A DNA stretch of 64,000 bases from assembly GCF_044324785.1 (NCBI RefSeq), contig NZ_CP172127.1; one strand, 5' to 3'. Below are positions 9,477 through 62,548 of the stretch, in pieces. A program made the position numbers and the translations under genes. The stretch comes from Escherichia coli (GTDB lineage Bacteria; Pseudomonadota; Gammaproteobacteria; Enterobacterales; Enterobacteriaceae). The notes under the pieces were generated by a model that saw nothing but the letters and a program-made list of their open reading frames with translations, was not told where the DNA came from and ran no database searches. Each line of letters begins with the position of its first letter. Position 1 is the first letter of the stretch.

Positions 9477-10565
9477 ATGCCTCACAATCCTATCCGCGTG
9501 GTCGTCGGCCCGGCTAACTACTTTTCACATCCAGGAAGTTTCAATCACCTGCATGATTTTTTCACTGATGAACAACTTTCTCGCGCGGTGTGGGTCTACG
9601 GCGAACGCGCCATTGCTGCGGCGCAAACCAAACTTCCGCCAGCGTTTGAACTGCCAGGGGCAAAGCATATTTTGTTTCGCGGTCATTGCAGCGAAAGCGA
9701 TGTACAGAAACTGGCGGCTGACTCCGGTGACGACCGCAGCGTGGTGATTGGCGTCGGCGGCGGCGCACTGCTCGACACCGCGAAAGCCCTCGCCCGCCGT
9801 CTCGGTCTGCCGTTTGTTGCCGTTCCGACGATCGCCGCTACCTGCGCCGCCTGGACACCGCTCTCTGTCTGGTATAACGATGCCGGACAGGCGCTGCATT
9901 ATGAGATTTTCGACGACGCCAATTTTATGGTGCTGGTGGAACCGGAGATTATCCTCAATGCGCCGCAAGAATATCTGCTGGCGGGGATCGGTGACACGCT
10001 GGCGAAATGGTATGAAGCGGTGGTGCTGGCCCCGCAACCAGAAACGTTGCCGTTAACCGTGCGCCTGGGGATTAATAACGCGCAGGCCATTCGCGACGTC
10101 TTGTTAAACAATAGCGAACAGGCGCTTGCCGATCAGCAAAATCAACAGTTAACGCAATCATTTTGCGATGTGGTGGATGCGATTATCGCCGGAGGTGGAA
10201 TGGTCGGTGGTCTGGGCGATCGTTTTACGCGTGTGGCGGCGGCCCATGCCGTGCATAACGGTCTGACCGTGCTGCCGCAAACCGAGAAGTTTCTTCACGG
10301 TACCAAAGTCGCCTACGGAATTCTGGTGCAAAGCGCCTTGCTGGGTCAGGATGATGTGCTGGCACAATTAACCGGGGCGTATCAGCGTTTTCATCTGCCG
10401 ACTACGCTGGCGGAGCTGGAAGTGGATATCAATAATCAGGCGGAGATCGACAAAGTGATTGCCCACACCTTACGTCCGGTGGAATCCATTCATTACCTGC
10501 CAGTCACGCTGACACCAGATACGTTACGTGCAGCGTTCGAAAAAGTGGAATCGTTTAAAGCCTGA
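9477..10565 (+). CDS. ybdH: Iron-containing alcohol/hydroxycarboxylate dehydrogenase YbdH (HcxA), 362 aa
   Basis: Full ORF; glycerol-dehydrogenase-like GGGxxxD region; recognised as YbdH. Confidence 0.9.
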   Translation: MPHNPIRVVVGPANYFSHPGSFNHLHDFFTDEQLSRAVWVYGERAIAAAQTKLPPAFELPGAKHILFRGHCSESDVQKLAADSGDDRSVVIGVGGGALLDTAKALARRLGLPFVAVPTIAATCAAWTPLSVWYNDAGQALHYEIFDDANFMVLVEPEIILNAPQEYLLAGIGDTLAKWYEAVVLAPQPETLPLTVRLGINNAQAIRDVLLNNSEQALADQQNQQLTQSFCDVVDAIIAGGGMVGGLGDRFTRVAAAHAVHNGLTVLPQTEKFLHGTKVAYGILVQSALLGQDDVLAQLTGAYQRFHLPTTLAELEVDINNQAEIDKVIAHTLRPVESIHYLPVTLTPDTLRAAFEKVESFKA

Positions 10566-10574
10566 CGTACATAT

Positions 10575-10772
10575 TTAGCAGCAGCGCGCGCCGCCTTTTC
10601 CACCGTAGCGCGCGTCCTGCCGCTCACGGAAAAACTCCTCGTAGGTCATCGGCGTTTGATCGGGATGGTTTACCCGCATATGTTCGACATAGTTGTCGTA
10701 ATCAGGCATACCAATCATCAGCTTCGCCGCCTGACCTAAATATTTTCCGGCTTTTGCCAGTGAATCAAACAT
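10575..10772 (-). CDS. ybdD: Small DUF466 protein YbdD, 65 aa
   Basis: [58 protein letters not shown]...; downstream of cstA as in K-12. Confidence 0.85.
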
Positions 10773-10834
10773 CAATACCTCCGGTAAACAGGTTGCTGAT
10801 AGAGTGCATTAATAGCTATCAACGCGCTCGGTCA

Positions 10835-10935
10835 GTCCCCTCGCCCCACCGGGGAGAGGGTTAGGGTGAGGGGGAACCCTCGGCACCATGCCAACTTTCG
10901 CCAACATTCGCCAACATTCCCCCCTCACTCTGACT
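10835..10935. repeat. GC-rich imperfect-palindrome element with tandem 'ttcgccaaca' direct repeat, in the cstA-ybdD spacer
   Basis: ccctcgccccaccggggagagggttagggtgaggggg contains nested inverted repeats; cgccaacattcgccaacatt direct repeat follows. Confidence 0.4.
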
Positions 10936-48308: not shown

Positions 48309-49051
48309 TTAGTTAGTTCAAACTCAAAGAGTGATGTATCGCCTTCTGTTATTATTTATCAATAAAACAGGGAAGACCTTATTGGTCGTCTGAAATCGAA
48401 GGTTATTCATTTTCGGATATTTACGAGATATTTAGATATGCAATTTAATCAAATTCGTGTTTCTACCAATTGTAGAGCACAATGCTATTACTAAATTTTC
48501 ATCACTATAAAAGAATCGGCTATAATATAAAGCGCAGTCAGGCATCATTAATCTCTATATTATTCACACAATCTATTTATCAAGTGAATTTGATAAATTC
48601 CTAATTTAAAATATTCACTATTAAGCCAGCGTCTAACGACGTTAAGATGGCAATGTGCAGATCATGTTATCAGGGTGGGGCGGTAGCGTATATTCCTTAT
48701 ACAAACCATCATTCATTTCAATAATATTTATTGAGTTATTTATTATTGTGAATAAAAAGACATTACAAATATTGGTTTAACTTTGCATATCAGGTGTTTT
48801 TTTGTTACTCGATGTAATATACGAGCCTGTCCTTAATAACATCGTGAACCCGTCAGTTGAGTTTGTGATTATTTTGTTGACTCAACAGCCCCCCGTTTCT
48901 CTGAAGTAAAATCCCGGACAAAATTCTCACATAACCATGACACTTTTCTGATATTCCCCGGTAACGCCTGAAGCCGGCCCGCTTATCTCATTACCCGACA
49001 TGTTGTACATGCAATATGTGCGGATTATTATTCATTTTCACGGAGGTTGCT
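48309..49051. other. AT-rich non-coding junction between the core genome (cusS) and the Rhs/vgrG accessory element
   Basis: About 740 bp with no convincing ORF and abrupt compositional change; K-12 gene order would place nfrB here. Confidence 0.6.
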
Positions 49052-50953
49052 ATGTCAACCGGATTACGTTTCACACTGGAAGTGGACGGCCTGCCACCGG
49101 ACGCTTTTGCGGTGGTCTCCTTTCATCTCACCCAGTCACTCTCTTCACTTTTTTCCCTAGACCTTTCTCTGGTCAGTCAGCAGGTTCTCTCCCTTGAATT
49201 TGCGCAGGTGCTGGACAAAATGGCCTACCTGACGGTATGGCAGGGCGATGACGTACAGCGCCGGGTGAAAGGCGTGGTGACCTGGTTTGAACTCGGGGAG
49301 AACGACAAAAACCAGATGCTGTACAGCATGAAGGTGCGCCCGCCGCTGTGGCGGGCAGGACTGCGTCAGAACTTCCGTATCTTCCAGAACGAGGACATCA
49401 GAAGCATCCTCGGCACCATACTGCAGGAAAACGACGTCACGGAGTGGAGCCCGCTGTTCAGCGAGCCGCATCCTTCCCGTGAGTTTTGTGTCCAGTACGG
49501 TGAAACCGATTACGACTTTCTCTGCCGGATGGCAGCGGAGGAAGGCATCTTCTTCTATGAGGAGCACGCGCAGAAAAGTACCGACCAGAGTCTGGTGCTG
49601 TGCGACACGGTCCGCTATCTGCCGGAGTCCTTTGAAATCCCCTGGAACCCGAACACCCGTACCGAGGTGAGCACCCTCTGCATCAGCCAGTTCCGCTACA
49701 GCGCACAAATCCGTCCTTCCTCCGTGGTGACCAAAGACTACACCTTTAAACGCCCCGGCTGGGCCGGGCGTTTTGACCAGGAAGGCCAGCATCAGGATTA
49801 CCAGCGCACACAGTATGAAGTGTATGACTGGCCGGGGCGTTTCAAGAGCGCCCACGGGCAGAACTTTGCCCGCTGGCAGATGGACGGCTGGCGAAACAAC
49901 GCAGAAACCGCGCGGGGAATGAGCCGCTCGCCGGAGATATGGCCGGGACGGCGAATTGTGCTGACGGAGCATCCGCAGGCGAACCTGAACCGGGAATGGC
50001 AGGTGGTGGCGAGCGAACTGCACGGCGAACAGCCGCAGGCGGTGCCGGGACGGCGGGGCGCGGGGACGGCGCTGGAGAACCAGTTTGTGGTAATCCCGGC
50101 AGACCGGACGTGGCGGCCACAGCCGAAGCCAAAGCCGTCAGTGGACGGTCCACAGAGCGCCGTCGTGACGGGGCCTGCGGGAGAGGAAATCTTCTGCGAC
50201 GAGCATGGCCGGGTGCGGGTGAAATTCAACTGGGACCGCTATAACCCGGCCAACCAGGACAGCTCGTGCTGGATACGGGTGGCGCAGGCGTGGGCGGGGC
50301 CGGGATTTGGCAACCTGGCGATACCGCGCGTGGGTCAGGAGGTCATTGTGGACTTCCTCAACGGCGACCCAGACCAGCCCATCATCATGGGCCGCACCTA
50401 TCACCAGGAAAACCGCACCCCCGGCAGCCTGCCGGGAACGAAGACGCAGATGACCATCCGCTCCAAAACATATATGGGCAGCGGGTTTAACGAGCTGAAG
50501 TTTGACGATGCAACAGGGAAAGAACAGGTCTACATCCACGCGCAGAAGAACATGGATACCGAGGTGCTCAACGACCGTACCACCACCGTAAAACACGATC
50601 ACCGCGAAACCGTAAAAAATGACCAGACGGTCACGATCCAGGAAGGTAACCGCCTTCTTACGGTGGCAAAAGGCCACAAAATCACAGGCGTACTAAAAGG
50701 GTCCTTATCTGAGGATGTCTTTCAGGACAGAGGCACGATTGCCGGTTCAGTGCATGTTGACGCTGTAAACAATGGTGGCGAAGGCGACGGTATACAGGCT
50801 TATACGGCGATTAAGCAAATTATGCTGGCCGTGGAGGAAAGCAAAATTGCGCTGACGCCGGATGGCATTCAGCTACAGGTCGGGGAATCGACGGTAATCA
50901 GGCTGTCGAAGGATGGCATCACCATCGTGGGCAGTTCTGTTTTCATCAACTGA
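49052..50953 (+). CDS. vgrG: Rhs-linked VgrG (type VI secretion spike protein), 633 aa
   Basis: ORF-track frame 49016..50953; start at MSTGLRFTLEVDGLPPDAFAVVSF with GGAGG ribosome-binding site; gp27/gp5-like VgrG sequence. Confidence 0.9.
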   Translation: MSTGLRFTLEVDGLPPDAFAVVSFHLTQSLSSLFSLDLSLVSQQVLSLEFAQVLDKMAYLTVWQGDDVQRRVKGVVTWFELGENDKNQMLYSMKVRPPLWRAGLRQNFRIFQNEDIRSILGTILQENDVTEWSPLFSEPHPSREFCVQYGETDYDFLCRMAAEEGIFFYEEHAQKSTDQSLVLCDTVRYLPESFEIPWNPNTRTEVSTLCISQFRYSAQIRPSSVVTKDYTFKRPGWAGRFDQEGQHQDYQRTQYEVYDWPGRFKSAHGQNFARWQMDGWRNNAETARGMSRSPEIWPGRRIVLTEHPQANLNREWQVVASELHGEQPQAVPGRRGAGTALENQFVVIPADRTWRPQPKPKPSVDGPQSAVVTGPAGEEIFCDEHGRVRVKFNWDRYNPANQDSSCWIRVAQAWAGPGFGNLAIPRVGQEVIVDFLNGDPDQPIIMGRTYHQENRTPGSLPGTKTQMTIRSKTYMGSGFNELKFDDATGKEQVYIHAQKNMDTEVLNDRTTTVKHDHRETVKNDQTVTIQEGNRLLTVAKGHKITGVLKGSLSEDVFQDRGTIAGSVHVDAVNNGGEGDGIQAYTAIKQIMLAVEESKIALTPDGIQLQVGESTVIRLSKDGITIVGSSVFIN

Positions 50954-50980: not shown

Positions 50981-51442
50981 ATGCAGTTCACTTTTAATGA
51001 AGGTCATATTCAGCTGCCATCGCAATGGCAGGATCAGTCGATGCAGGTCCTGGTGTCCACAGATAACAGTGGCATCAACCTGGTCATTACCCGCGAACCC
51101 GTTCCACAGGGAACCCTGACACCAGAACTGTACCAGGAAACGCTGGCGCTGTACCAGGGCAAACTTGATGGGTACACCGAACATGCCTGCCGGGAAATCA
51201 CTCTGGCAGAGGCCCCGGCCTGGCTGCTGGATTATTCCTGGAACGGTCCGGAAGATGAAGGGAATCAGGGGCGGATTAGCCAGATAGCCGTATTCCAGCG
51301 GCGTGGAGATACGCTGCTGACCTTCACTTTCAGCACCTCCTTATCCCTGAAGAACAGTCAAAAGACGATGCTGCTGGAGGTGATAAAGAGCTTCACCCCG
51401 TTGCCACCGGAGAATGACATCCAAAAGGACCAGCCGCGCTGA
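50981..51442 (+). CDS. DUF1795-family (Eag-type) chaperone for a prePAAR effector, 153 aa
   Basis: Full ORF directly upstream of a prePAAR-Rhs gene; family call by gene context and size. Confidence 0.65.
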   Translation: MQFTFNEGHIQLPSQWQDQSMQVLVSTDNSGINLVITREPVPQGTLTPELYQETLALYQGKLDGYTEHACREITLAEAPAWLLDYSWNGPEDEGNQGRISQIAVFQRRGDTLLTFTFSTSLSLKNSQKTMLLEVIKSFTPLPPENDIQKDQPR

Positions 51443-51461: not shown

Positions 51462-54400
51462 ATGAGTGAAGGACCAGGCGGGCCACAGGGAGCGACCGCA
51501 GGCGGTACGCTGGCAATGCGAATGCTGTCACAGCAGGCGATGGTCGCCAGCCAGATGAAACGGGCAGCCAACGACAAAGCCATTGCACAGATGTTGGCAT
51601 CAAAAAAGTCTGGCCCCCCCGCCGCCAGGCTGGGCGATGAAATTCAGCACAAGAGTTTTTTGGGGGCGCTGGCAGGGGCCGTGCTGGGGGCGATAGTGAC
51701 CATCGCAGAAGGTTGCCTGATTATCGCCGCCTGTGCCACCGGCCCTTATGCGCTGGTTCTGGTGCCTGCGCTGATGTATGCCAGCTATAAGGCGAGTGAT
51801 TATGTGGAGGAGAAACAGAACCAGCTTGAATCCTGGATAAACAGCTTTTGTGACAAGGACGGGGCCATCAATACTGGTTCTAAAAATGTAAACATTAACG
51901 GAAAGCCCGCTGCCAGGGCCGCCGTCACACTTCCCCCTCCTCCCCTGACTGAAGCAATACCCTCTCCACCACAGGGGGAACCTTCATGGGGGGATATTGC
52001 CACTGACCTGCTTGAATCGGCAGCGGAAAAAGCAGTGCCACTGGCGAAGGCCTGGGGGAACGCTGTTATCACCCTGACGGACAGCAATGCCAGTTTTATG
52101 GATCGCTTATGTGCAGGCACATCGCTTCTGTTTCCCTACGGCCCGGTATTAATGGAGTTTGCCACCATGGTGGGCGGGCGTGGCGAAATCAAAAAAGACG
52201 TGGATTTCCCGGAAGCCGGTGAAGACACGGCGCTCTGCGACAAGGAGACTAAACCGCCGAGGATAGCCCAGGGCAGCAGCAACGTCTTCATCAACAATCA
52301 GCCTGCCGCGCGCAAGGGCGACAAACTGGAGTGCAGCGCGGCAATCGTGGAAGGTTCGCCGGACGTCTTTATTGGGGGTGAGCAGGTCACCTATCTGGAT
52401 ATCCAGCCGGAGTTCCCGCCGTGGCAGAGAATGATCCTGGGGGGAATAACGATAGCCAGCTATCTTCTGCCGCCAGCGGGACTGCTGGGAAAAATGAAGA
52501 ATCTGGCGAGACTCGGCAAACTGGGAAACCTGCTGGGGAAAAGCGGGAAGCTGCTGGGCGCAAAACTCGGCGCATTGCTGAGCAGAACAAAAAATGCCCT
52601 GAAAAATACGTATAACGTCCTGAAAAAGTTTATCAAAGATCCGGTTGACCCGGTAACCGGCGCGTACTGCGACGAACGTACCGACTTCACCCTGGGCCAG
52701 ACCCTCCCCCTCTCCTTCACCCGTTTCCACAGTTCTGTACTGCCACTGCATGGCCTGACGGGCGTGGGCTGGAGCGACTCCTGGAGCGAATACGCCTGGG
52801 TGCGTGAACAGGGAAACCGGGTGGATATCATCAGCCAGGGAGCCACGCTGTACTTTGCCTTCGACGGAGACAGTGATACGGCGGTTAACCCGTATCACGC
52901 CCAGTATATCCTGCGCCGCCGCGACGATTACCTGGAGCTGTTCGACCGTGATGCCCTGAGCAGCCGCTTCTTTTATGACGCCTTTCCGGGAATGCGCCTG
53001 CGCCACCAGGTGACCGGCGATACCAATGATGACCGCCTGGCACACAGCCCCGGTGACCGGATGTACATGCTGGGCGGAATGAGTGACACCGCCAGCAACC
53101 GCATCACGTTTGAGCGCGACAGTCAGTACCGGATCACGGGTGTCAGTCACACCGACGGGATCCGGCTTAAACTGACGTACCACGCCAGCGGCTACCTGAA
53201 AGCCATTCACCGCACGGATAACGGCATACAGACGCTGGCGACCTACGAACAGGACGAACGGGGACGGCTGACAGAAGCGGATGCGCGGCTGGACTACCAC
53301 CTGTTTTATGAGTACGACGATGCGGACCGGATCATCCGCTGGTCCGATAACGACCAGACGTGGAGCCGTTTCACCTACGATGCACAGGGCCGGTGCGTGA
53401 CCGTCACCGGGGCGGAAGGCTATTACAACGCCACGCTGGACTATGGTGACGGCTGCACTTCCGTGACGGACGGCAAGGGCATTCACCGTTATTACTATGA
53501 TCCTGACGGCAATATCCTGCGGGAAGACGCGCCGGACGGCAGTACCACCACGTATGAATGGGATGAATTCCATCACCTGCTGGCCCGCCACTCCCCTGCC
53601 GGACGGGTGGAGAAATTTGAATACAACGCCGTACACGGTCAGTTAAGCCGTTACACGGCGGCAGACGGCGCGGTGTGGCAGTACCGCTATGATGAGCGCG
53701 GCCTGCTCAGCAACATCACCGACCCTGCCGGGCAGACGTGGACACAGCAGTGTGATGAACGCGGCCTGCCGGTAAGTCTGGTGTCGCCACAGGGCGAAGA
53801 GACCCGGCTGGCGTACACGCCACAGGGGCTGCTGTCGGGGATATTCCGCCAGGATGAACGGCGTCTGGGCATAGAGTACGACCACCACAACCGGCCGGAA
53901 ACACTCACCGACGTGATGGGCCGTGAACACCACACCGAATACAGCGGTCACGACCTGCCGGTGAAGATGCGCGGCCCCGGCGGTCAGTCAGTGCGGTTAC
54001 AGTGGCAGCAGCACCATAAACTGAGTGGCCTTGAGCGGGCAGGAACCGGCGCGGAAGGATTCCGCTACGACCGCCACGGCAACCTGCTGGCGTACACGGA
54101 CGGTAACGGCGTTGTCTGGACAATGGAATACGGCCCGTTCGATTTGCCGGTGGCGCGAACGGACGGTGAAGGCCACCGCTGGCAGTACCGCTACGATAAA
54201 GACACGCTGCAACTGACAGAAGTCATCAATCCGCAGGGTGAGTCATACCGTTATATTCTCGACAACTGTGGCCGGGTGACGGAAGAGCGTGACTGGGGCG
54301 GCGTGGTCTGGCGTTACCGCTATGACGCCGATGGCCTGTGTACCGCCAGGGTTAACGGCCTGGAGGAAACTATCCTCTACAGCCGGGACGCCGCAGGCCG

Positions 54401-56324
54401 CCTGGCAGAAGTCATCACCCCGGAAGGCAAAACGCAGTATGCGTATGACAAATCCGGCAGGCTGACGGGTATCTTCAGCCCGGACGGCACATCACAGCGC
54501 ACCGGCTACGACGAACGCGGGCGGGTGAATGTCACCACTCAGGGCAGACGGGCCATTGAGTACCACCACCCCGATGAACACACCGTTATCCGCTGTATCC
54601 TGCCACCGGAAGATGAACGCGACAGACACCCCGGTGAATCCCTGCTGAAAACCACCTACCGCTACAACGCCGCCGGAGAACTGACGGAGGTTATCCTGCC
54701 GGGGGATGAGACGCTGACGTTCAGCCGTGATGAGGCAGGACGTGAAGTGCTCCGGCACAGTAACCGGGGTTTTGCCTGTGAACAGGGCTGGAATGCAGCC
54801 GGTCAGCTTACCAGCCAGCGCGCCGGATTTTTCCCGGCGGAAGCCACATGGGGCGGACTGCTCCCCTCACTGGTGCGGGAGTACCGTTACGACAGCGCGG
54901 GCAATGTGTCGGCTGTCACCAGCCGGGAAGACTACGGACGGGAAACACGGCGGGAGTACCGGCTGGACCGGAACGGCCAGGTCACAACGGTGACAGCCTC
55001 AGGCACCGGGCTGGGCTATGGCGAAGGCGACGAGACTTATGGCTATGACAGCTGCGGCTACCTGAAGGCGCAGTCTGCGGGCAGGCACCGGATAAGTGAA
55101 GAGACTGACCAGTATGCCGGAGGCCACCGGCTGAAACAGGCCGGAAACACGCAGTATGACTATGACGCCGCAGGCCGGATGGTCAGCCGCACCAGACACC
55201 GTGACGGCTACCGCCCGGAAACAGAGCGGTTCCGGTGGGACAGCCGGGACCAGCTGACCGGGTATTGCAGCGCACAGGGGGAGCAGTGGGAATACCGCCA
55301 CGACGCCAGCGGCAGGCGGACGGAAAAACGCTGCGACCGGAAGAAAATCCGTTTTACGTACCTGTGGGACGGCGACAATATTGCGGAAATCCGGGAATAC
55401 CGCGATGATAAACTGTACAGCGTACGGCACCTGGTGTTTAACGGCTTTGAGCTGGTAAGCCAGCAGTGCAGCCGGGTACGGCAGGCGCATCCGTCCGTGG
55501 CCCCGCAGTGGGTGACGCGAACGAATTATGCGGTGAGCGACCTGACAGGCCGCCCGCTGATGCTCTTTAACAGTGAAGGTAAAACCGTCTGGCGGCCGGG
55601 ACAGACCAGCCTGTGGGGGCTGGCACTCAGCCTGCCCGCAGACACCGGCTACCCGGACCCGCGCGGGGAACTGGACCCGGAAGCCCCCCCCGGCCTGCTG
55701 TATGCGGGACAGTGGCAGGATACGGAATCGGGGCTGTGCTATAACCGGTTCCGGTATTACGAGCCGGAAACCGGAATGTACCTGGTGAGTGATCCGCTGG
55801 GGTTGCAGGGAGGTGAGCAGACTTACCGGTATGTGCCTAATCCTTGTGGGTATGTTGATCCGCTGGGGCTGGCAAAAACCAGTATTATAAAATCTTCTAC
55901 AGGCAAAATCCCACAAGGGTTAACAAAAAGCGAATTTGAGATTTTTTCAAAAAAATTAAAGGATGTATTAGCCCGAGAGGGAATCTCGACAGAGAATGTG
56001 TTTGTACATGGCAGTAGAGCCAGAGGAGATGCTGTATCAGGTGTTTCAGATATTGATATAAAAGTGATCCTTAGTGATAAAGATTTTGGTGCCTTTGCAG
56101 CAAGACGTATTGCTGAGTCCTCAGGAAGGACTCGAAATTTAATCAGGAAGGCCGTTGCTAAAAATCAAAAAATAAATTCAAGAGGAATTTCTAAAACTTT
56201 TGAATCTACTGTATGGGATGAGGTTTTCACTACCTTACCAAAAGGTGAGTTTTCAAGCATTCAAGTTTCTGTTATGACCAAAACTTCACCATTCAACACT
56301 AATCCGAGTATTATATTACCATGA
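51462..56324 (+). CDS. prePAAR/PAAR-domain Rhs effector with C-terminal polymorphic toxin domain, 1620 aa
   Basis: N-terminal AARLGDEIQH prePAAR motif and TM helices, split PAAR region, YD/Rhs repeats, PxxxxDPxGL-type demarcation (PNPCGYVDPLGL), then an AT-rich 150-aa C-terminal extension. Confidence 0.92.
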   Translation: MSEGPGGPQGATAGGTLAMRMLSQQAMVASQMKRAANDKAIAQMLASKKSGPPAARLGDEIQHKSFLGALAGAVLGAIVTIAEGCLIIAACATGPYALVLVPALMYASYKASDYVEEKQNQLESWINSFCDKDGAINTGSKNVNINGKPAARAAVTLPPPPLTEAIPSPPQGEPSWGDIATDLLESAAEKAVPLAKAWGNAVITLTDSNASFMDRLCAGTSLLFPYGPVLMEFATMVGGRGEIKKDVDFPEAGEDTALCDKETKPPRIAQGSSNVFINNQPAARKGDKLECSAAIVEGSPDVFIGGEQVTYLDIQPEFPPWQRMILGGITIASYLLPPAGLLGKMKNLARLGKLGNLLGKSGKLLGAKLGALLSRTKNALKNTYNVLKKFIKDPVDPVTGAYCDERTDFTLGQTLPLSFTRFHSSVLPLHGLTGVGWSDSWSEYAWVREQGNRVDIISQGATLYFAFDGDSDTAVNPYHAQYILRRRDDYLELFDRDALSSRFFYDAFPGMRLRHQVTGDTNDDRLAHSPGDRMYMLGGMSDTASNRITFERDSQYRITGVSHTDGIRLKLTYHASGYLKAIHRTDNGIQTLATYEQDERGRLTEADARLDYHLFYEYDDADRIIRWSDNDQTWSRFTYDAQGRCVTVTGAEGYYNATLDYGDGCTSVTDGKGIHRYYYDPDGNILREDAPDGSTTTYEWDEFHHLLARHSPAGRVEKFEYNAVHGQLSRYTAADGAVWQYRYDERGLLSNITDPAGQTWTQQCDERGLPVSLVSPQGEETRLAYTPQGLLSGIFRQDERRLGIEYDHHNRPETLTDVMGREHHTEYSGHDLPVKMRGPGGQSVRLQWQQHHKLSGLERAGTGAEGFRYDRHGNLLAYTDGNGVVWTMEYGPFDLPVARTDGEGHRWQYRYDKDTLQLTEVINPQGESYRYILDNCGRVTEERDWGGVVWRYRYDADGLCTARVNGLEETILYSRDAAGRLAEVITPEGKTQYAYDKSGRLTGIFSPDGTSQRTGYDERGRVNVTTQGRRAIEYHHPDEHTVIRCILPPEDERDRHPGESLLKTTYRYNAAGELTEVILPGDETLTFSRDEAGREVLRHSNRGFACEQGWNAAGQLTSQRAGFFPAEATWGGLLPSLVREYRYDSAGNVSAVTSREDYGRETRREYRLDRNGQVTTVTASGTGLGYGEGDETYGYDSCGYLKAQSAGRHRISEETDQYAGGHRLKQAGNTQYDYDAAGRMVSRTRHRDGYRPETERFRWDSRDQLTGYCSAQGEQWEYRHDASGRRTEKRCDRKKIRFTYLWDGDNIAEIREYRDDKLYSVRHLVFNGFELVSQQCSRVRQAHPSVAPQWVTRTNYAVSDLTGRPLMLFNSEGKTVWRPGQTSLWGLALSLPADTGYPDPRGELDPEAPPGLLYAGQWQDTESGLCYNRFRYYEPETGMYLVSDPLGLQGGEQTYRYVPNPCGYVDPLGLAKTSIIKSSTGKIPQGLTKSEFEIFSKKLKDVLAREGISTENVFVHGSRARGDAVSGVSDIDIKVILSDKDFGAFAARRIAESSGRTRNLIRKAVAKNQKINSRGISKTFESTVWDEVFTTLPKGEFSSIQVSVMTKTSPFNTNPSIILP
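55872..56321 (+). other. Rhs C-terminal toxin domain, candidate nucleotidyltransferase fold
   Basis: HGSRARGDAVSGVSDIDIKV matches the hG[GS]-x(9-13)-DhDh nucleotidyltransferase signature by eye; sharp drop in GC at the DPLGL boundary. Confidence 0.55.
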
Positions 56325-56671
56325 AGAAAAAAGATATTAGATTTGCAATATCCATTAACTCCAACTTAAGTAAGATAGAATTAATGGAAAAAATTAAAAA
56401 TATAATCCCAGGGCTTATTGAAATAACTTCCAGTGCATTAAGAGAAGAAAAAAACATGGTAGTTATTGAAGAAAATGATCTTTATGACCCTATAAAAGCA
56501 GAGGGAGCTGATGGATGGATGTATTATAAATTCATATTATCCATATTCCCATTAAAGGGAGTGGAAACAACATTAGAATATCAACGGGAATTATCTTTTC
56601 TTTTCTTAAAGAAAATAAAAGATGCGGGCCTGTTGGGTGAACTTATATGCGAGGATGATTTTCATGACTGA
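56321..56671 (+). CDS. Putative cognate immunity protein for the Rhs toxin, 116 aa
   Basis: ATG overlaps the rhs stop (ATGA); AT-rich small ORF immediately downstream of the toxin domain. Confidence 0.7.
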   Translation: MKKKDIRFAISINSNLSKIELMEKIKNIIPGLIEITSSALREEKNMVVIEENDLYDPIKAEGADGWMYYKFILSIFPLKGVETTLEYQRELSFLFLKKIKDAGLLGELICEDDFHD

Positions 56672-56719
56672 TGACCTCTACATATATCCTCAGTTCGTGG
56701 CTGGTATTACATGATCTGA

Positions 56720-56880
56720 CAGGGAAAGATCGTGGCGAAATCAAAAAAGACGTGGATTTCCCGGAAGCCGGTGAGGACACGGCGCTCTGCGACAAGGAGA
56801 ACAAACCACCGAGGATAGCCCAGGGCAGCAGCAACGTCTTCATCAACAATCAGCCTGCCGCACGCAAAGGGGACAAACTG
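56720..56880 (+). repeat. Displaced copy of an rhs PAAR-region fragment (matches about 52180-52328), flanked by 'cagggaaagat' 11-mers
   Basis: About 150 bp near-identical to the main rhs gene; left flank carries the same 11-mer that begins the H-repeat element. Confidence 0.8.
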
Positions 56881-58171
56881 CAGGGAAAGATCACGTAACG
56901 CTGCTTTTTTGTACTAAATAATTCGCATTTTATGTTTAAAAATTGAGATATTCCTCATTACCTAAAGCTGTTTTTTATTGCTTATACATGATCAAATACT
57001 CCTTACATAATTAAGGAGAACAAAATGGAACTTAAAAAATTGATGGAACATATTTCTGTTATCCCCGATTACAGACAAGCATGGAAAGTAGAACATAAAT
57101 TGTCAGATATTCTACTGTTGACTATTTGCGCCGTCATTTGTGGTGCAGAAGGCTGGGAAGATATAGAGGATTTTGGTGAAACACATCTCGATTTTTTGAA
57201 GCAATATGGTGATTTTGAAAATGGTATTCCTGTCCACGATACCATTGCCAGAGTTGTATCCTGTATCAGTCCTGCAAAATTTCACGAGTGCTTTATTAAC
57301 TGGATGCGAGATTGCCATACTTCAGATGATAAAGACGTTATTGCAATCGATGGAAAAACACTCCGGCATTCTTATGACAAGAGTCGCCGCAGGGGAGCGA
57401 TTCATGTCATTAGTGCGTTCTCAACAATGCACAGTCTGGTCATCGGACAGATCAGGACGGATGAGAAATCTAATGAGATTACAGCTATCCCAGAACTTCT
57501 TAACATGCTGGATATTAAAGGAAAAATCATCACAACTGATGCGATGGGTTGCCAGAAAGATATTGCAGAGAAGATACAAAAACAGGGCGGTGATTATTTA
57601 TTCGCTGTAAAAGGAAATCAGGGGCGGCTTAATAAAGCCTTTGAGGAAAAATTCCCACTGAAAGAATTAAATAATCCAGAGCATGATAGTTACGCAATTA
57701 GTGAAAAGAGTCACGGCAGAGAAGAAATCCGACTTCATATTGTTTGCGATGTCCCTGATGAACTTATTGATTTCACGTTTGAATGGAAAGGGCTGAAGAA
57801 ATTATGCATAGCAGTCTCCTTTCGCTCAATAATAGCAGAGCAAAAGAAAGAGCCAGAAATGACGGTCAGATATTATATCAGTTCTGCTGATTTAAACACA
57901 GAAAAGTTCGCCACAGCAATCCGAAACCACTGGCACGTGGAGAATAAGCTGCACTGGCGTCTGGATGTGGTAATGAATGAAGACGACTGCAAAATAAGAA
58001 GAGGAAATGCAGCAGAATTATTTTCAGGGATACGGCACATCGCTATTAATATTTTGACGAATGATAAGGTATTCAAGGCAGGGTTAAGACGTAAGATACG
58101 AAAAGCAGCTATGGACAGAAACTACATGGCGTCAGTCCTTGCGGGGAGCGGGCTTTCGTAATCTTTCCCTG
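56881..58171 (+). mobile_element. H-repeat (ISAs1-family) insertion sequence, complete copy, about 1.29 kb
   Basis: Terminal inverted repeats cagggaaagatcacg (left) and cgtaatctttccctg (right); contains an intact transposase ORF. Confidence 0.85.
57025..58161 (+). CDS. ISAs1-family (H-repeat-associated) DDE transposase, 378 aa
   Basis: Full ORF with AAGGAG ribosome-binding site; [50 protein letters not shown]... typical of E. coli H-repeat ORF-H proteins. Confidence 0.88.
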
Positions 58172-59284: not shown

Positions 59285-62051
59285 CTGTTTTTGCCAGTGG
59301 GACGAATACCATCACCTGCTGGCGAGGCTGTCTCCGGCAGGACGGCTGGAAAAGTTTGACTATCATCTGACACTCGGTCAGTTAAGCCGTTACACGGCGG
59401 CAGACGGCGCGGAGTGGCAGTACCGCTATGATGAGCGCGGCCTGCTCAGCAACATCACCGACCCTGCCGGGCAGACGTGGACACAGCAGTGCGATGAACG
59501 CGGCCTGCCGGTGAGTCTGGTGTCGCCACAGGGCGAAGAGACCCGGCTGGCGTACACCGCTCAGGGGCTGCTGTCGGGGATATTCCGCCAGGATGAACGG
59601 CGTCTGGGCATAGAGTACGACCACCACAACCGGCCGGAAACACTCACCGACGTGATGGGCCGTGAACACCACACCGAATACAGCGGTCACGACCTGCCGG
59701 TGAAGATGCGCGGCCCCGGCGGTCAGTCAGTGCGCTTACAGTGGCAGCAGCACCATAAACTGAGCGGCATTGAACGTGCTGGAACCGGCGCGGAAGGATT
59801 TCGCTATGACCGCCACGGCAACCTGCTGGCCTGGACGGACGGCAACGGTGTTGACTGGACAATGGAATACGGCCCGTTTGATTTGCCGGTGGCGCGAACG
59901 GACGGTGAAGGCCACCGCTGGCAGTACCGCTACGATAAAGACACGCTGCAACTGACAGAAGTCATCAATCCGCAGGGCGAGTCATACCGTTATATTCTCG
60001 ACAACTGTGGGCGGGTGACGGAAGAGCATGACTGGGGCGGCGTGGTCTGGCGTTACCGCTATGACGCCGATGGTCTGTGTACCGCCAGGGTTAACGGCCT
60101 GGAGGAAACCATCCTCTACAGCCGGGACGCCGCAGGCCGCCTGGCAGAAGTCATCACCCCGGAAGGGAAAACGCAGTATGCGTATGACAAATCCGGCAGG
60201 CTGACGGGTATCTTCAGCCCGGACGGCACATCACAGCGCACCGGCTACGACGAACGCGGGCGGGTGAATGTCACCACTCAGGGCCGACGGGCCATTGAAT
60301 ACCACCACCCCGATGAACACACCGTCATCCGCTGTATCCTGCCACCGGAAGATGAACGCGACAGACACCCCGGTGAATCCCTGCTGAAAACCACCTACCG
60401 CTACAACGCCGCCGGAGAACTGACGGAGGTTATCCTGCCGGGGGATGAGACGCTGACGTTCAGCCGTGATGAGGCAGGACGTGAAGTGCTCCGGCACAGT
60501 AACCGGGGTTTTGCCTGTGAACAGGGCTGGAATGCAGCCGGTCAGCTTACCAGCCAGCGCGCCGGATTTTTCCCGGCGGAAGCCACATGGGGCGGACTGC
60601 TCCCCTCACTGGTGCGGGAGTACCGTTACGACAGCGCGGGCAATGTGTCGGCTGTCACCAGCCGGGAAGACTACGGACGGGAAACACGGCGGGAGTACCG
60701 GCTGGACCGGAACGGCCAGGTCACAACGGTGACAGCCTCAGGCACCGGGCTGGGCTATGGCGAAGGCGACGAGACTTATGGCTATGACAGCTGCGGCTAC
60801 CTGAAGGCGCAGTCTGCGGGCAGGCACCGGATAAGTGAAGAGACTGACCAGTATGCCGGAGGCCACCGGCTGAAACAGGCCGGAAACACGCAGTATGACT
60901 ATGACGCCGCAGGCCGGATGGTCAGCCGCACCAGACACCGTGACGGCTACCGCCCGGAAACAGAGCGGTTCCGGTGGGACAGCCGGGACCAGCTGACCGG
61001 GTATTGCAGCGCACAGGGGGAGCAGTGGGAATACCGCCACGACGCCAGCGGCAGGCGGACGGAAAAACGCTGCGACCGGAAGAAAATCCGTTTTACGTAC
61101 CTGTGGGACGGCGACAATATTGCGGAAATCCGGGAATACCGCGATGATAAACTGTACAGCGTACGGCACCTGGTGTTTAACGGCTTTGAGCTGGTAAGCC
61201 AGCAGTGCAGCCGGGTACGGCAGGCGCATCCGTCCGTGGCCCCGCAGTGGGTGACGCGAACGAATTATGCGGTGAGCGACCTGACAGGCCGCCCGCTGAT
61301 GCTCTTTAACAGTGAAGGTAAAACCGTCTGGCGGCCGGGACAGACCAGCCTGTGGGGGCTGGCACTCAGCCTGCCCGCAGACACCGACTACCCGGACCCG
61401 CGCGGGGAGCTGGACCCGGAAGCCGACCCCGGCCTGCTGTATGCAGGACAGTGGCAGGATACGGAATCAGGGCTGTGCTATAACCGGTTCCGGTACTACG
61501 AGCCGGAAACCGGAATGTACCTGGTGAGTGATCCGCTGGGGTTGCAGGGGGGTGAGCAGACTTACCGGTATGTGCCGAATCCTTTAAGATATAAAGATTT
61601 CTATGGGCTTAGTAAGAGTTCAATAATAACGAGAGGAAAGAATGCTGGTCATGGCTATGCAGCCAGCGTTACACCTGGAGGCAAAGGTACGGTGTTGGCT
61701 GGTCACGGAGGATCAAAATTTGGCGATAAAATGATTATACCAGAAGGCGTATCGATAACGATGCCGAGAGATGGTATTAAAATATCAGATATGACTGGAA
61801 AATTACTGGAATCTGGTAATGTGGATGATATAATTAAAGCTGCAAGTAATAATCCTCGTGTAGCTAGCGATCTTGAAGGTTGGGTTACTTATTTGCCCGG
61901 CACTGAAATCCCTGATTATATTTTAAAACCACCCACCAATCTTAACATACTGGAAAATTCAGTAACGGTGAACACTTCAACTTATTTATCTCAAATGGTA
62001 AATGCTGGTCAAGGTAATGTAATCTGGGCTGCATGCACCGAATTTTTTTAA
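59285..62051 (+). CDS. Orphan rhs C-terminal cassette (Rhs core repeats plus alternative toxin domain); no canonical ATG, first in-frame start is GTG at 59511
   Basis: Near-identical to the main rhs from about aa 700 onward, then diverges at a degenerate PNPLRYKDFYGL motif into a distinct roughly 147-aa AT-rich C-terminus. Confidence 0.8.
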
Positions 62052-62065
62052 CGCGGGGTAATCGT

Positions 62066-62548
62066 ATGTATTTTAAAGATGATACTGACTATACATATTT
62101 CCTTCCTAATGAATATTTTTTACACGGGGTGAAAAATGTGGGCTGGATAGACAGAGAACACCCCTTCACAAAAGGGATTAGTGACGCTGAATTTATTGAA
62201 AAGTTAAAAGCAATAATTCTAACAGAGAATGAAGCAACTTGTTTTTCAGTTAATAAAATAAGAGGATTTCACAAATGTAATTTTTGCAATAGTGAAATGA
62301 TAACAATAACCGATGGAAGAAAAAAAGGATACCTTGGCATGAGTGAAATATGGATTCCATCCATCCACCATAATGAGTATTACGCGTTTCCTTCATTAAT
62401 TTTCCATTATATAACATCTCACATGTATAGACCACCAGAGGACTTTATTGTATCTGTTTTAAACTTGAATTTAAGCGAGAGTTTTTGCGCTCAAAACATA
62501 TATGACAATAAAATTAAGGAATTAAAAATAGACTTCTGGTTTCGTTAA
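62066..62548 (+). CDS. Putative immunity protein for the orphan Rhs toxin, 160 aa
   Basis: ORF-track frame 62033..62548; ATG at 62066 just after the orphan toxin stop; AT-rich, Cys/His-containing. Confidence 0.6.
   Translation: MYFKDDTDYTYFLPNEYFLHGVKNVGWIDREHPFTKGISDAEFIEKLKAIILTENEATCFSVNKIRGFHKCNFCNSEMITITDGRKKGYLGMSEIWIPSIHHNEYYAFPSLIFHYITSHMYRPPEDFIVSVLNLNLSESFCAQNIYDNKIKELKIDFWFR

Follow-up and report, generated by a model that had tools for sequence, protein, structure and literature searches.

A candidate Rhs effector–immunity pair of Escherichia coli with a minimal Pol-beta-type nucleotidyltransferase as its predicted warhead

Introduction

The 64-kb stretch of Escherichia coli DNA analysed here (the window) carries a vgrG–eag–rhs island in which the rhs gene ends in a C-terminal toxin domain (CT) and runs into an overlapping open reading frame (ORF) of 116 amino acids (aa). 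We consider it likely that CT and ORF form an antibacterial type VI secretion system (T6SS) effector/immunity pair, in which a minimal Pol-beta-type nucleotidyltransferase (NTase) warhead would transfer a nucleoside monophosphate (NMP) to an essential cytoplasmic molecule and the acidic 116-aa protein would confer immunity. The evidence comes from the predicted fold of the CT, from the conservation of its active-site motif in a family of toxins borne by many secretion carriers, and from the recurrent pairing of such toxins with homologues of the downstream ORF.

To our knowledge, the warheads of T6SS and Rhs effectors are mostly nucleases, deaminases, ADP-ribosyltransferases, NADases and pore formers, together with one RelA/SpoT-type synthetase, and the only roles characterised to date for the fold of minimal nucleotidyltransferases of the MNT type are those of antitoxin and resistance enzyme. 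If catalytically active, the CT would bring a new chemistry—NMPylation—to interbacterial warfare and, if our reading is true, would be the first tractable interbacterial toxin with an MNT-type minimal NTase warhead, allowing a new essential target to be identified and revealing one fold that serves as antidote in HEPN-MNT modules and as poison in an Rhs toxin. The pair spans only 800 bp and comes from E. coli, which makes it simple to test, and because the toxin family is found in many phyla and with at least four delivery systems, characterising this pair would annotate hundreds of toxins.

Fold of the toxin domain

Pfam searches with the CT returned NTP_transf_2 (PF01909; independent E-value 3.1e-6) and Polbeta (PF18765; 4.4e-5), both spanning the helix–GS–DxD half of the domain. 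Matches in NCBIfam and PADLOC were weak and all to NTases (CBASS cyclase, CCA, MntA, ANT(4′) and PDC-S09), and direct matches to sequences in the PDB were likewise weak and included NTases only. When a profile of the toxin family was compared with PDB sequences, everything found at E < 0.2 was again an NTase, with HI0073 in first place (1.4e-3), followed by CdnE, 2rff, AF0614, KNTase and MntA.

An AlphaFold 2 (AF2) model computed from five sequences was mediocre (predicted local distance difference test, pLDDT, 66.7); one computed from a 49-sequence alignment of the family reached a pLDDT of 94.8 and a predicted template modelling score (pTM) of 0.87. The CT model contains an alpha-beta-alpha-beta-alpha-beta NTase core that can be superposed on solved NTases, and the structures nearest to it are MNT nucleotidyltransferases; MenT/AbiEii and RelA/SpoT structures were absent from its top 60 structural matches. 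On the profile matches and the model, we conclude that the CT has a minimal NTase fold.

A preliminary description of this DNA had recognised a 150-aa CT with a GS...DxD motif after the demarcation PNPCGYVDPLGL (last nucleotide 55871) and had read it as a Pol-beta-type NTase. The CT and its motif were confirmed, and the reading is borne out by the Pfam and AF2 fold matches and by the invariance of the motif residues described below; profile searching and structure prediction of Rhs residues 1471–1620, two of the checks proposed in that description, both gave an NTase. Its further suggestion, that the domain is of the AbiEii/MenT type and acts on tRNA or other targets, survives only in part: membership of the NTase superfamily stood, whereas kinship with MenT/AbiEii did not, the nearest relatives being minimal MNT-type enzymes, and for this reason tRNA becomes just one target option among others. 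Neither the DUF1814/AbiEii profile nor the two-lobed architecture of such toxins (~250–300 aa) was found in the CT.

The CT might instead make or consume nucleotides, as a (p)ppApp/alarmone synthetase like Tas1, a CD-NTase-like oligonucleotide synthase or an NTP-depleting enzyme. Such a product would suit the CBASS cyclases among the weak best NCBIfam and PADLOC matches, and RelA/SpoT-like enzymes are the sole NTase-fold class recognised so far among T6SS effectors (PMC11925235; PMC3482391); Tas1, in particular, has the wider NTase fold, acts as a toxin in the cytoplasm after T6SS delivery and uses ATP. However, the CT lacks the C-terminal helical lobe of CD-NTases and, unlike Tas1, matched neither the RelA_SpoT profile of Pfam nor that fold, differs in the arrangement of its motifs and has MNTs as its nearest structures. 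We rejected the RelA/SpoT (Tas1-like) and CD-NTase readings, to which the matching was limited to the shared GS/DxD core, and regard nucleotide-directed activity of this kind as quite unlikely.

Conservation of the active site

The motif HGSRARGDAVSGVSDIDIKV (CT residues 46–65) agrees with the signature hG[GS]-x11-DhDh, which is read here as VHGS-x11-DIDI (CT residues 45–63). A short GS/DxD motif is by itself weak evidence and not diagnostic; a loose NTase regular expression matched the six reading frames of the window five times, where shuffled sequence gave 0.46, and Rhs repeats accounted for two of these matches. The expression matches AGGHRLKQAGNTQYDYDA in both copies of the Rhs core (window 55116 and 60855). 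What raises the CT motif above chance is the combination of Pfam profile matches, fold match and invariance of G47, S48, D60 and D62, which are present in 86/86 aligned family domains and in 40/40 full-length carriers. Near-invariant positions in the family alignment include F72, S133 (85/86), P145 and V67, and the ends of the domain are also conserved, starting with [IV]PQG[LF][ST] and finishing with G[SG]xF[DN]xGP.

To judge from the family alignment and the model, position 131, on the last long beta-strand, would be the site of the third carboxylate of Pol-beta enzymes. Family domains are divided at this position between Q (46/86; 54%) and D (40/86; 47%), and the window protein has Q.

Distribution across secretion carriers

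An exhaustive hmmsearch of 1.84 billion representatives recovered 123 cluster representatives at E ≤ 1e-3, of which 28 reached E ≤ 1e-10, and was needed because word-indexed protein searches had found just 4–8 relatives (Pectobacterium, Proteus and metagenomes). One apparent match, a 1527-aa highly repetitive protein (P0028) with E 3e-15 in 13 short stretches, is a low-complexity or repeat artefact rather than a family member. Full-length domain matches finished no more than five residues from the protein C-terminus in 78 of 85 cases, behind N-terminal extensions of 0 to 2550 aa.

Pfam annotation of 40 carriers identified eCIS_core/DUF4157 of extracellular contractile injection systems (eCIS; 7), DUF4280 (3), RHS, PAAR with prePAAR, PT-HINT and Fil_haemagg, and one carrier was a 2441-aa CdiA-like protein of the two-partner secretion/filamentous haemagglutinin (TPS/FHA) type, adjoining a ShlB-type transporter. 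A Foldseek search of AFDB50 added WXG100/type VII secretion system (T7SS) proteins, a Neisseria fragment and proteins from actinomycetes, Bacteroidota and Planctomycetes, all of them uncharacterised. The same CT domain is thus found at the extreme C-terminus of unrelated delivery modules, as in polymorphic toxins. Both in Pectobacterium and on an enterobacterial metagenome contig, the arrays of orphan Rhs cassettes are interspersed with genes on the opposite strand that match SymE_toxin (PF08845; L003 2690..3151; L006 4798..4932 and 10528..10899; L007 12078..12218).

Among complete E. coli genomes, the catalytic 5′ half of the CT was detected in 1/5426 (strain N3), sensitive blastn included, and tblastn against 72,556 plasmids gave no match to the CT. 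Relative to the window, the N3 rhs has three 1-bp deletions (at window 51662, 52439 and 52706) that leave it frameshifted, and the Prokaryotic Genome Annotation Pipeline (PGAP) therefore calls a pseudogene and a separate 108-aa ‘nucleotidyltransferase domain-containing protein’ (GTG 55998); the deletions may be assembly errors or real decay.

The rarity of the full CT in E. coli, where its one occurrence is on a frameshifted rhs and other genomes hold remnants, and the Q in place of the third carboxylate are what one might expect if the CT were an inactive relic or pseudo-enzyme, or a cassette undeployed in the source strain. We judge this very unlikely. The 1620-aa ORF of the window is intact and has every family-invariant residue, its immunity gene is retained and coupled, and orphan immunity genes are widespread (see below). 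Q131 itself represents a family state and not decay, because the 46/86 representatives that share it have invariant GS/DxD.

The downstream open reading frame

The 116-aa ORF had no match in Pfam, NCBIfam, PADLOC, PHROG or PDB sequences. Homologous acidic ORFs (isoelectric point, pI, 4.2–5.0) lay directly 3′ of the toxin at 7/7 other loci inspected in the toxin clade. These comprised an Rhs array from an enterobacterial metagenome, an orphan module of Pectobacterium whose genes likewise overlap in the ATGA manner, one prePAAR-PAAR and one CdiA-like protein, an Rhs of 2676 aa, and two further toxins, of the eCIS/DUF4157 (immunity E 7e-26) and DUF4280-HINT (immunity E 4e-10) kinds. A divergent toxin clade (“P[FY]GF...GSAVHK”, mostly eCIS) is followed by a different family of acidic ORFs of 156–184 aa (L017 3303..3773, L018 7628..8122 and L019 5876..6430), none of which matches the 116-aa family; the L017 ORF is a homologue of the L018 one (E 2e-5). 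The presence of a different downstream family beside the divergent clade is the pattern expected of co-diversifying toxin–immunity pairs.

The ORF also persists without its toxin. In 138/5426 complete E. coli genomes (~2.5%), including O121 and O103 strains, we found an intact 116-aa ORF with only the 3′ 214 nt of the toxin and without the catalytic half; in O121 RM8352 the toxin remnant is frameshifted and the immunity ORF intact. The breakpoint is always window nucleotide 56107, just past the DxD strand (56107..56671; L002 8001..8565), which looks like the outcome of one ancestral deletion that left an orphan immunity gene. Such widespread orphans imply a toxin that poses a real threat now or did so in the recent past, and their frequency suggests that the toxin has shaped competition in the gut.

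Downstream pairing across delivery systems and the persistence of orphans support identification of the 116-aa ORF, from sequence comparison, as the immunity gene. The preliminary description had assigned it this role and had seen in the two genes the window's best candidate for a new effector/immunity pair. The ATGA overlap, the pairing at all seven loci and the orphan genomes uphold the former view; of the latter, the pair is real but the domain family is not wholly new, being probably already listed in silico as Ntox45 (PMC3482391; PMC5512222).

Within the 116-aa family, D56, P77, D113 and F114 are invariant, and a near-invariant aromatic pair, [YF][YF], corresponds to Y68-Y69 in the window protein (56522..56527). 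The pair follows a conserved D-G-[WFY], which is D-T-Y in the most divergent member (L011). On this conservation, Y68-Y69 could act as a pseudosubstrate or active-site plug.

HEPN-MNT operons place a small MNT gene before, and often overlapping, a small partner gene. The same gene order in the window, together with the MNT antitoxins that are the nearest structures to the CT, would allow a reversal of roles, in which a captured MNT-HEPN-like module has the NTase domain as antidote and the 116-aa ORF as toxin. Yet alignment of the 116-aa family revealed no HEPN Rx4-6H motif, the family matched neither Pfam nor the PDB, and on many secretion carriers it is the NTase that sits where the warhead belongs. 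Above all, the 138 E. coli genomes hold the 116-aa ORF without the NTase catalytic half, which would be lethal were the ORF the toxin. We rejected this reading on the missing HEPN motif and on the retention of the ORF as an orphan, which rules it out for practical purposes and leaves it barely credible.

Proposed mode of action and candidate targets

By analogy with characterised Rhs effectors, the Rhs protein would load onto VgrG via its PAAR domain with the assistance of the Eag chaperone, its YD-repeat shell would enclose the C-terminal 150 residues, and these would be cleaved after DPLGL and freed in the target cell. There, G47-S48 would bind the phosphates of a nucleoside triphosphate (NTP), while Mg2+ would be held by D60 and D62 together with Q131 and S133 from the adjacent strand; NMP would pass from the NTP to a hydroxyl group on some essential molecule of the cytoplasm, and growth would stop. 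The acidic 116-aa protein would shield the producing cell; most likely it would bind the basic toxin (pI 10) and so block the active site.

MntA AMPylates a tyrosine. For that reason, and because Iyer et al. predicted protein NMPylation for Ntox45-like NTases and the third residue of the site is non-canonical, we favour a protein as the target, which would undergo NMPylation (AMPylation) as by MntA/MNT antitoxins; this choice, made by analogy, is plausible but still somewhat doubtful. A small molecule or nucleotide as the product appears unlikely.

An activity like that of MenT/AbiEii, in which the CT would add nucleotides to the 3′-CCA of tRNA or to another RNA 3′-OH and so block aminoacylation and translation, is possible, albeit decidedly doubtful. 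It is favoured by the MenT precedent, since all experimentally characterised NTase toxins in the literature found, other than RelA/SpoT homologues (RSH), are tRNA-tailing MenT/AbiEii enzymes, and by the pairing of a basic toxin (pI 10.0; family median 9.26) with acidic proteins in both immunity families, a pattern common for nucleic-acid-directed toxins. Nevertheless, MenT measures ~290 aa and the CT domain ~135 aa, in which no RNA-binding module can be recognised, and the third carboxylate, near-universal in NTases that extend an RNA or DNA 3′-OH, is Gln in the CT. An RNase_T/DEDD exonuclease-like gene, two genes downstream of an eCIS NTase toxin (P0094 contig), would fit repair of RNA 3′ tails; this hint was dropped when nothing comparable recurred in three further loci.

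Several observations weigh against the proposed NMP-transferring effector. Profile matches in Pfam, NCBIfam, PADLOC and the PDB are confined to the N-terminal helix–GS–DxD half of the CT, the C-terminal half being family-specific. The third acidic residue of Pol-beta NTases (h[DE]h, on a later beta-strand) is replaced in the window protein by Q131, and because of this Gln the chemistry may differ from that of textbook two-metal NTases. Among characterised proteins the closest relatives, the MNTs, act as antitoxins and not as toxins; the window was found to hold no T6SS core genes; and N3, alone among complete E. coli genomes in sharing this CT, has its rhs out of frame. Nothing in the data at hand separates a protein from an RNA or small-molecule target.

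In its most specific form, our proposal is that an MNT-type minimal NTase has been turned into an interbacterial weapon that NMPylates an essential cytoplasmic target through an atypical GS/DxD/Q-x-S site, is countered by a previously undescribed immunity family, possibly with a pseudosubstrate tyrosine, and recurs in different phyla on T6SS, CdiA, eCIS and T7SS-type carriers. We advance it tentatively, giving the whole slightly less than an even chance.

Relation to described toxins

Ntox45 was predicted by Zhang et al. (2012) as an alpha+beta polymorphic-toxin domain with a DxD motif, found with HINT and RHS in Actinobacteria, alpha-proteobacteria and Bacteroidetes, and its table entry lists no immunity protein, no gamma-proteobacteria and the type II secretion system (T2SS) only (PMC3482391). 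Iyer et al. (2017) later assigned it to the minimal Pol-beta NTases, as a relative of the MNT antitoxins, and predicted NMP transfer to protein (PMC5512222). Our toxin family fits all the features by which Ntox45 was described, being a C-terminal, alpha+beta minimal Pol-beta NTase with DxD on RHS and HINT carriers and having actinomycete and Bacteroidota members; in contrast to the table entry, it has a conserved immunity family and occurs on T6SS (Rhs, PAAR and DUF4280), type V secretion system (T5SS; CdiA-like), eCIS and T7SS-type carriers. The family is probably Ntox45, a match made by description since there is no Pfam model for Ntox45.

MNTs are known as antitoxins of HEPN-MNT modules. 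Compared with the MNTs HI0073 and MntA/SO_3166 (PDB 1no5, 8xeh, 5yep and 7ae2), which are paired with HEPN RNases, the CT takes the place of the toxin and has a partner other than HEPN. It scores only 16.2 bits on the MntA model NF047752 (NCBIfam), where the cutoff is 60, and it differs from MNTs in a stretch of ~60 residues, with three helices, that separates the DxD strand from the core strand after it, and in a family-specific C-terminal [DQ]xS...G[SG]xF[DN]xGP motif. With MenT/AbiEii (DUF1814) it shares the Pol-beta superfamily; those enzymes are growth-arresting toxins with NTP-dependent transfer, properties that are predicted for the CT.

No experimental study of a secreted toxin with a non-RSH NTase fold was found in the full-text literature searched, in which most subscription journals are missing. 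The papers found on “NTase toxins” all concern MenT/AbiEii, NTases go unmentioned in a 2025 survey of Rhs toxins in which Pectobacterium is included, and in reviews of T6SS effectors RelA/SpoT-like enzymes are the only NTases mentioned (PMC11925235). The pair is real and moderately novel: a standard Rhs/T6SS polymorphic module with a predicted warhead chemistry for which no experimentally characterised counterpart was found among secreted antibacterial toxins, and with an immunity family not described before. Characterised enterobacterial prePAAR-Rhs effectors share its vgrG–eag–rhs–immunity order, the DPxGL core end, and the orphan cassettes and insertion sequence (IS) elements downstream; only the warhead and the immunity protein differ.

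Genomic context

The features of the island are summarised in Table 1. It lies between cusS and nfrB/nfrA, amid the ent/fep and cus genes of the E. coli core genome, and none of the complete RefSeq E. coli genomes is identical to the window, the nearest being that of strain N3 (98.3% identity across 20 kb).

Table 1. Features of the vgrG–eag–rhs island and its toxin–immunity module in the window.
Feature	Position	Strand	Basis
VgrG spike protein (T6SS tip), first gene of the island	49016..50953	+	NCBIfam TIGR03361 VI_Rhs_Vgr
Predicted Eag-type chaperone (DcrB/DUF1795) for the prePAAR transmembrane region of Rhs	50981..51442	+	Pfam DcrB PF08786
prePAAR-PAAR-Rhs effector carrying the toxin, 1620 aa, single uninterrupted ORF	51462..56324	+	ORF read, Pfam
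DPLGL, core end, presumed autoproteolytic CT release site	55857..55871	+	TIGR03696 end, sequence read
C-terminal toxin domain (CT), Rhs residues 1471–1620, 150 aa, minimal Pol-beta-type NTase fold	55872..56321	+	
Active-site motif HGSRARGDAVSGVSDIDIKV, CT residues 46–65 (G47-S48, 56010..56015; D60-I-D62, 56049..56057)	56007..56066	+	Invariance in family
Q131-V-S133, last long beta-strand, putative third metal-binding carboxylate site	56262..56270	+	Family alignment, modelled strand 130–136
Acidic 116-aa predicted immunity protein, pI 5.0, translationally coupled	56321..56671	+	ATG within ATGA overlap with Rhs stop
PAAR-region repeat (copy of 52179..52328), directly 3′ of immunity gene	56731..56880	+	Self-match, 94–95% identity
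ISAs1-family transposase, separating the module from further orphan rhs cassettes	57025..58161	+	ORF; N3 annotation

The match of VgrG to TIGR03361 is strong (E 1.2e-188; 628 bits, the cutoff being 186), and at the N3 locus (98% identical) the same gene carries a VgrG annotation. The next gene matches DcrB over its full length (independent E-value 7.3e-28) and is named ‘DcrB-related protein’ by PGAP; by analogy with prePAAR effectors, its product would be the Eag chaperone of the Rhs. In the Rhs protein itself, Pfam places prePAAR_I at residues 54–99, PAAR at 261–310 and DUF6531 at 393–455, together with many RHS repeats, AARLGDEIQH and DPLGL can both be read directly in the ORF, and the match to the Rhs-associated core (TIGR03696 Rhs_assc_core) stops exactly at residue 1470. 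With prePAAR, PAAR, RHS repeats, a DPxGL core end and adjacent VgrG and Eag genes all present, the carrier is, judged by its predicted architecture, a genuine T6SS cargo.

Residues 1–1477 of the Rhs align without gaps, at 95% identity, to the Rhs of O121 RM8352, whose CT differs. The G+C content falls from 60–65% in the Rhs core to 29–39% over the CT and the 116-aa ORF, which marks the two as a swapped-in cassette, such a drop being the usual sign of one. The PAAR-region repeat beyond the immunity gene, which PGAP annotates in N3 as ‘PAAR domain-containing protein, incomplete’, is covered by an ORF at 56671..56898 and is probably a scar or recombination substrate of cassette exchange or displacement.

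Further downstream lies a second, N-terminally truncated orphan rhs (59511..62051; 846-aa ORF), with a core ~97% identical to that of the main rhs and a different CT, which matches Pfam Stv ‘putative adhesin’ (PF21527; 2e-12). It is overlapped by a 171-aa ORF (62033..62548), presumably its immunity gene.

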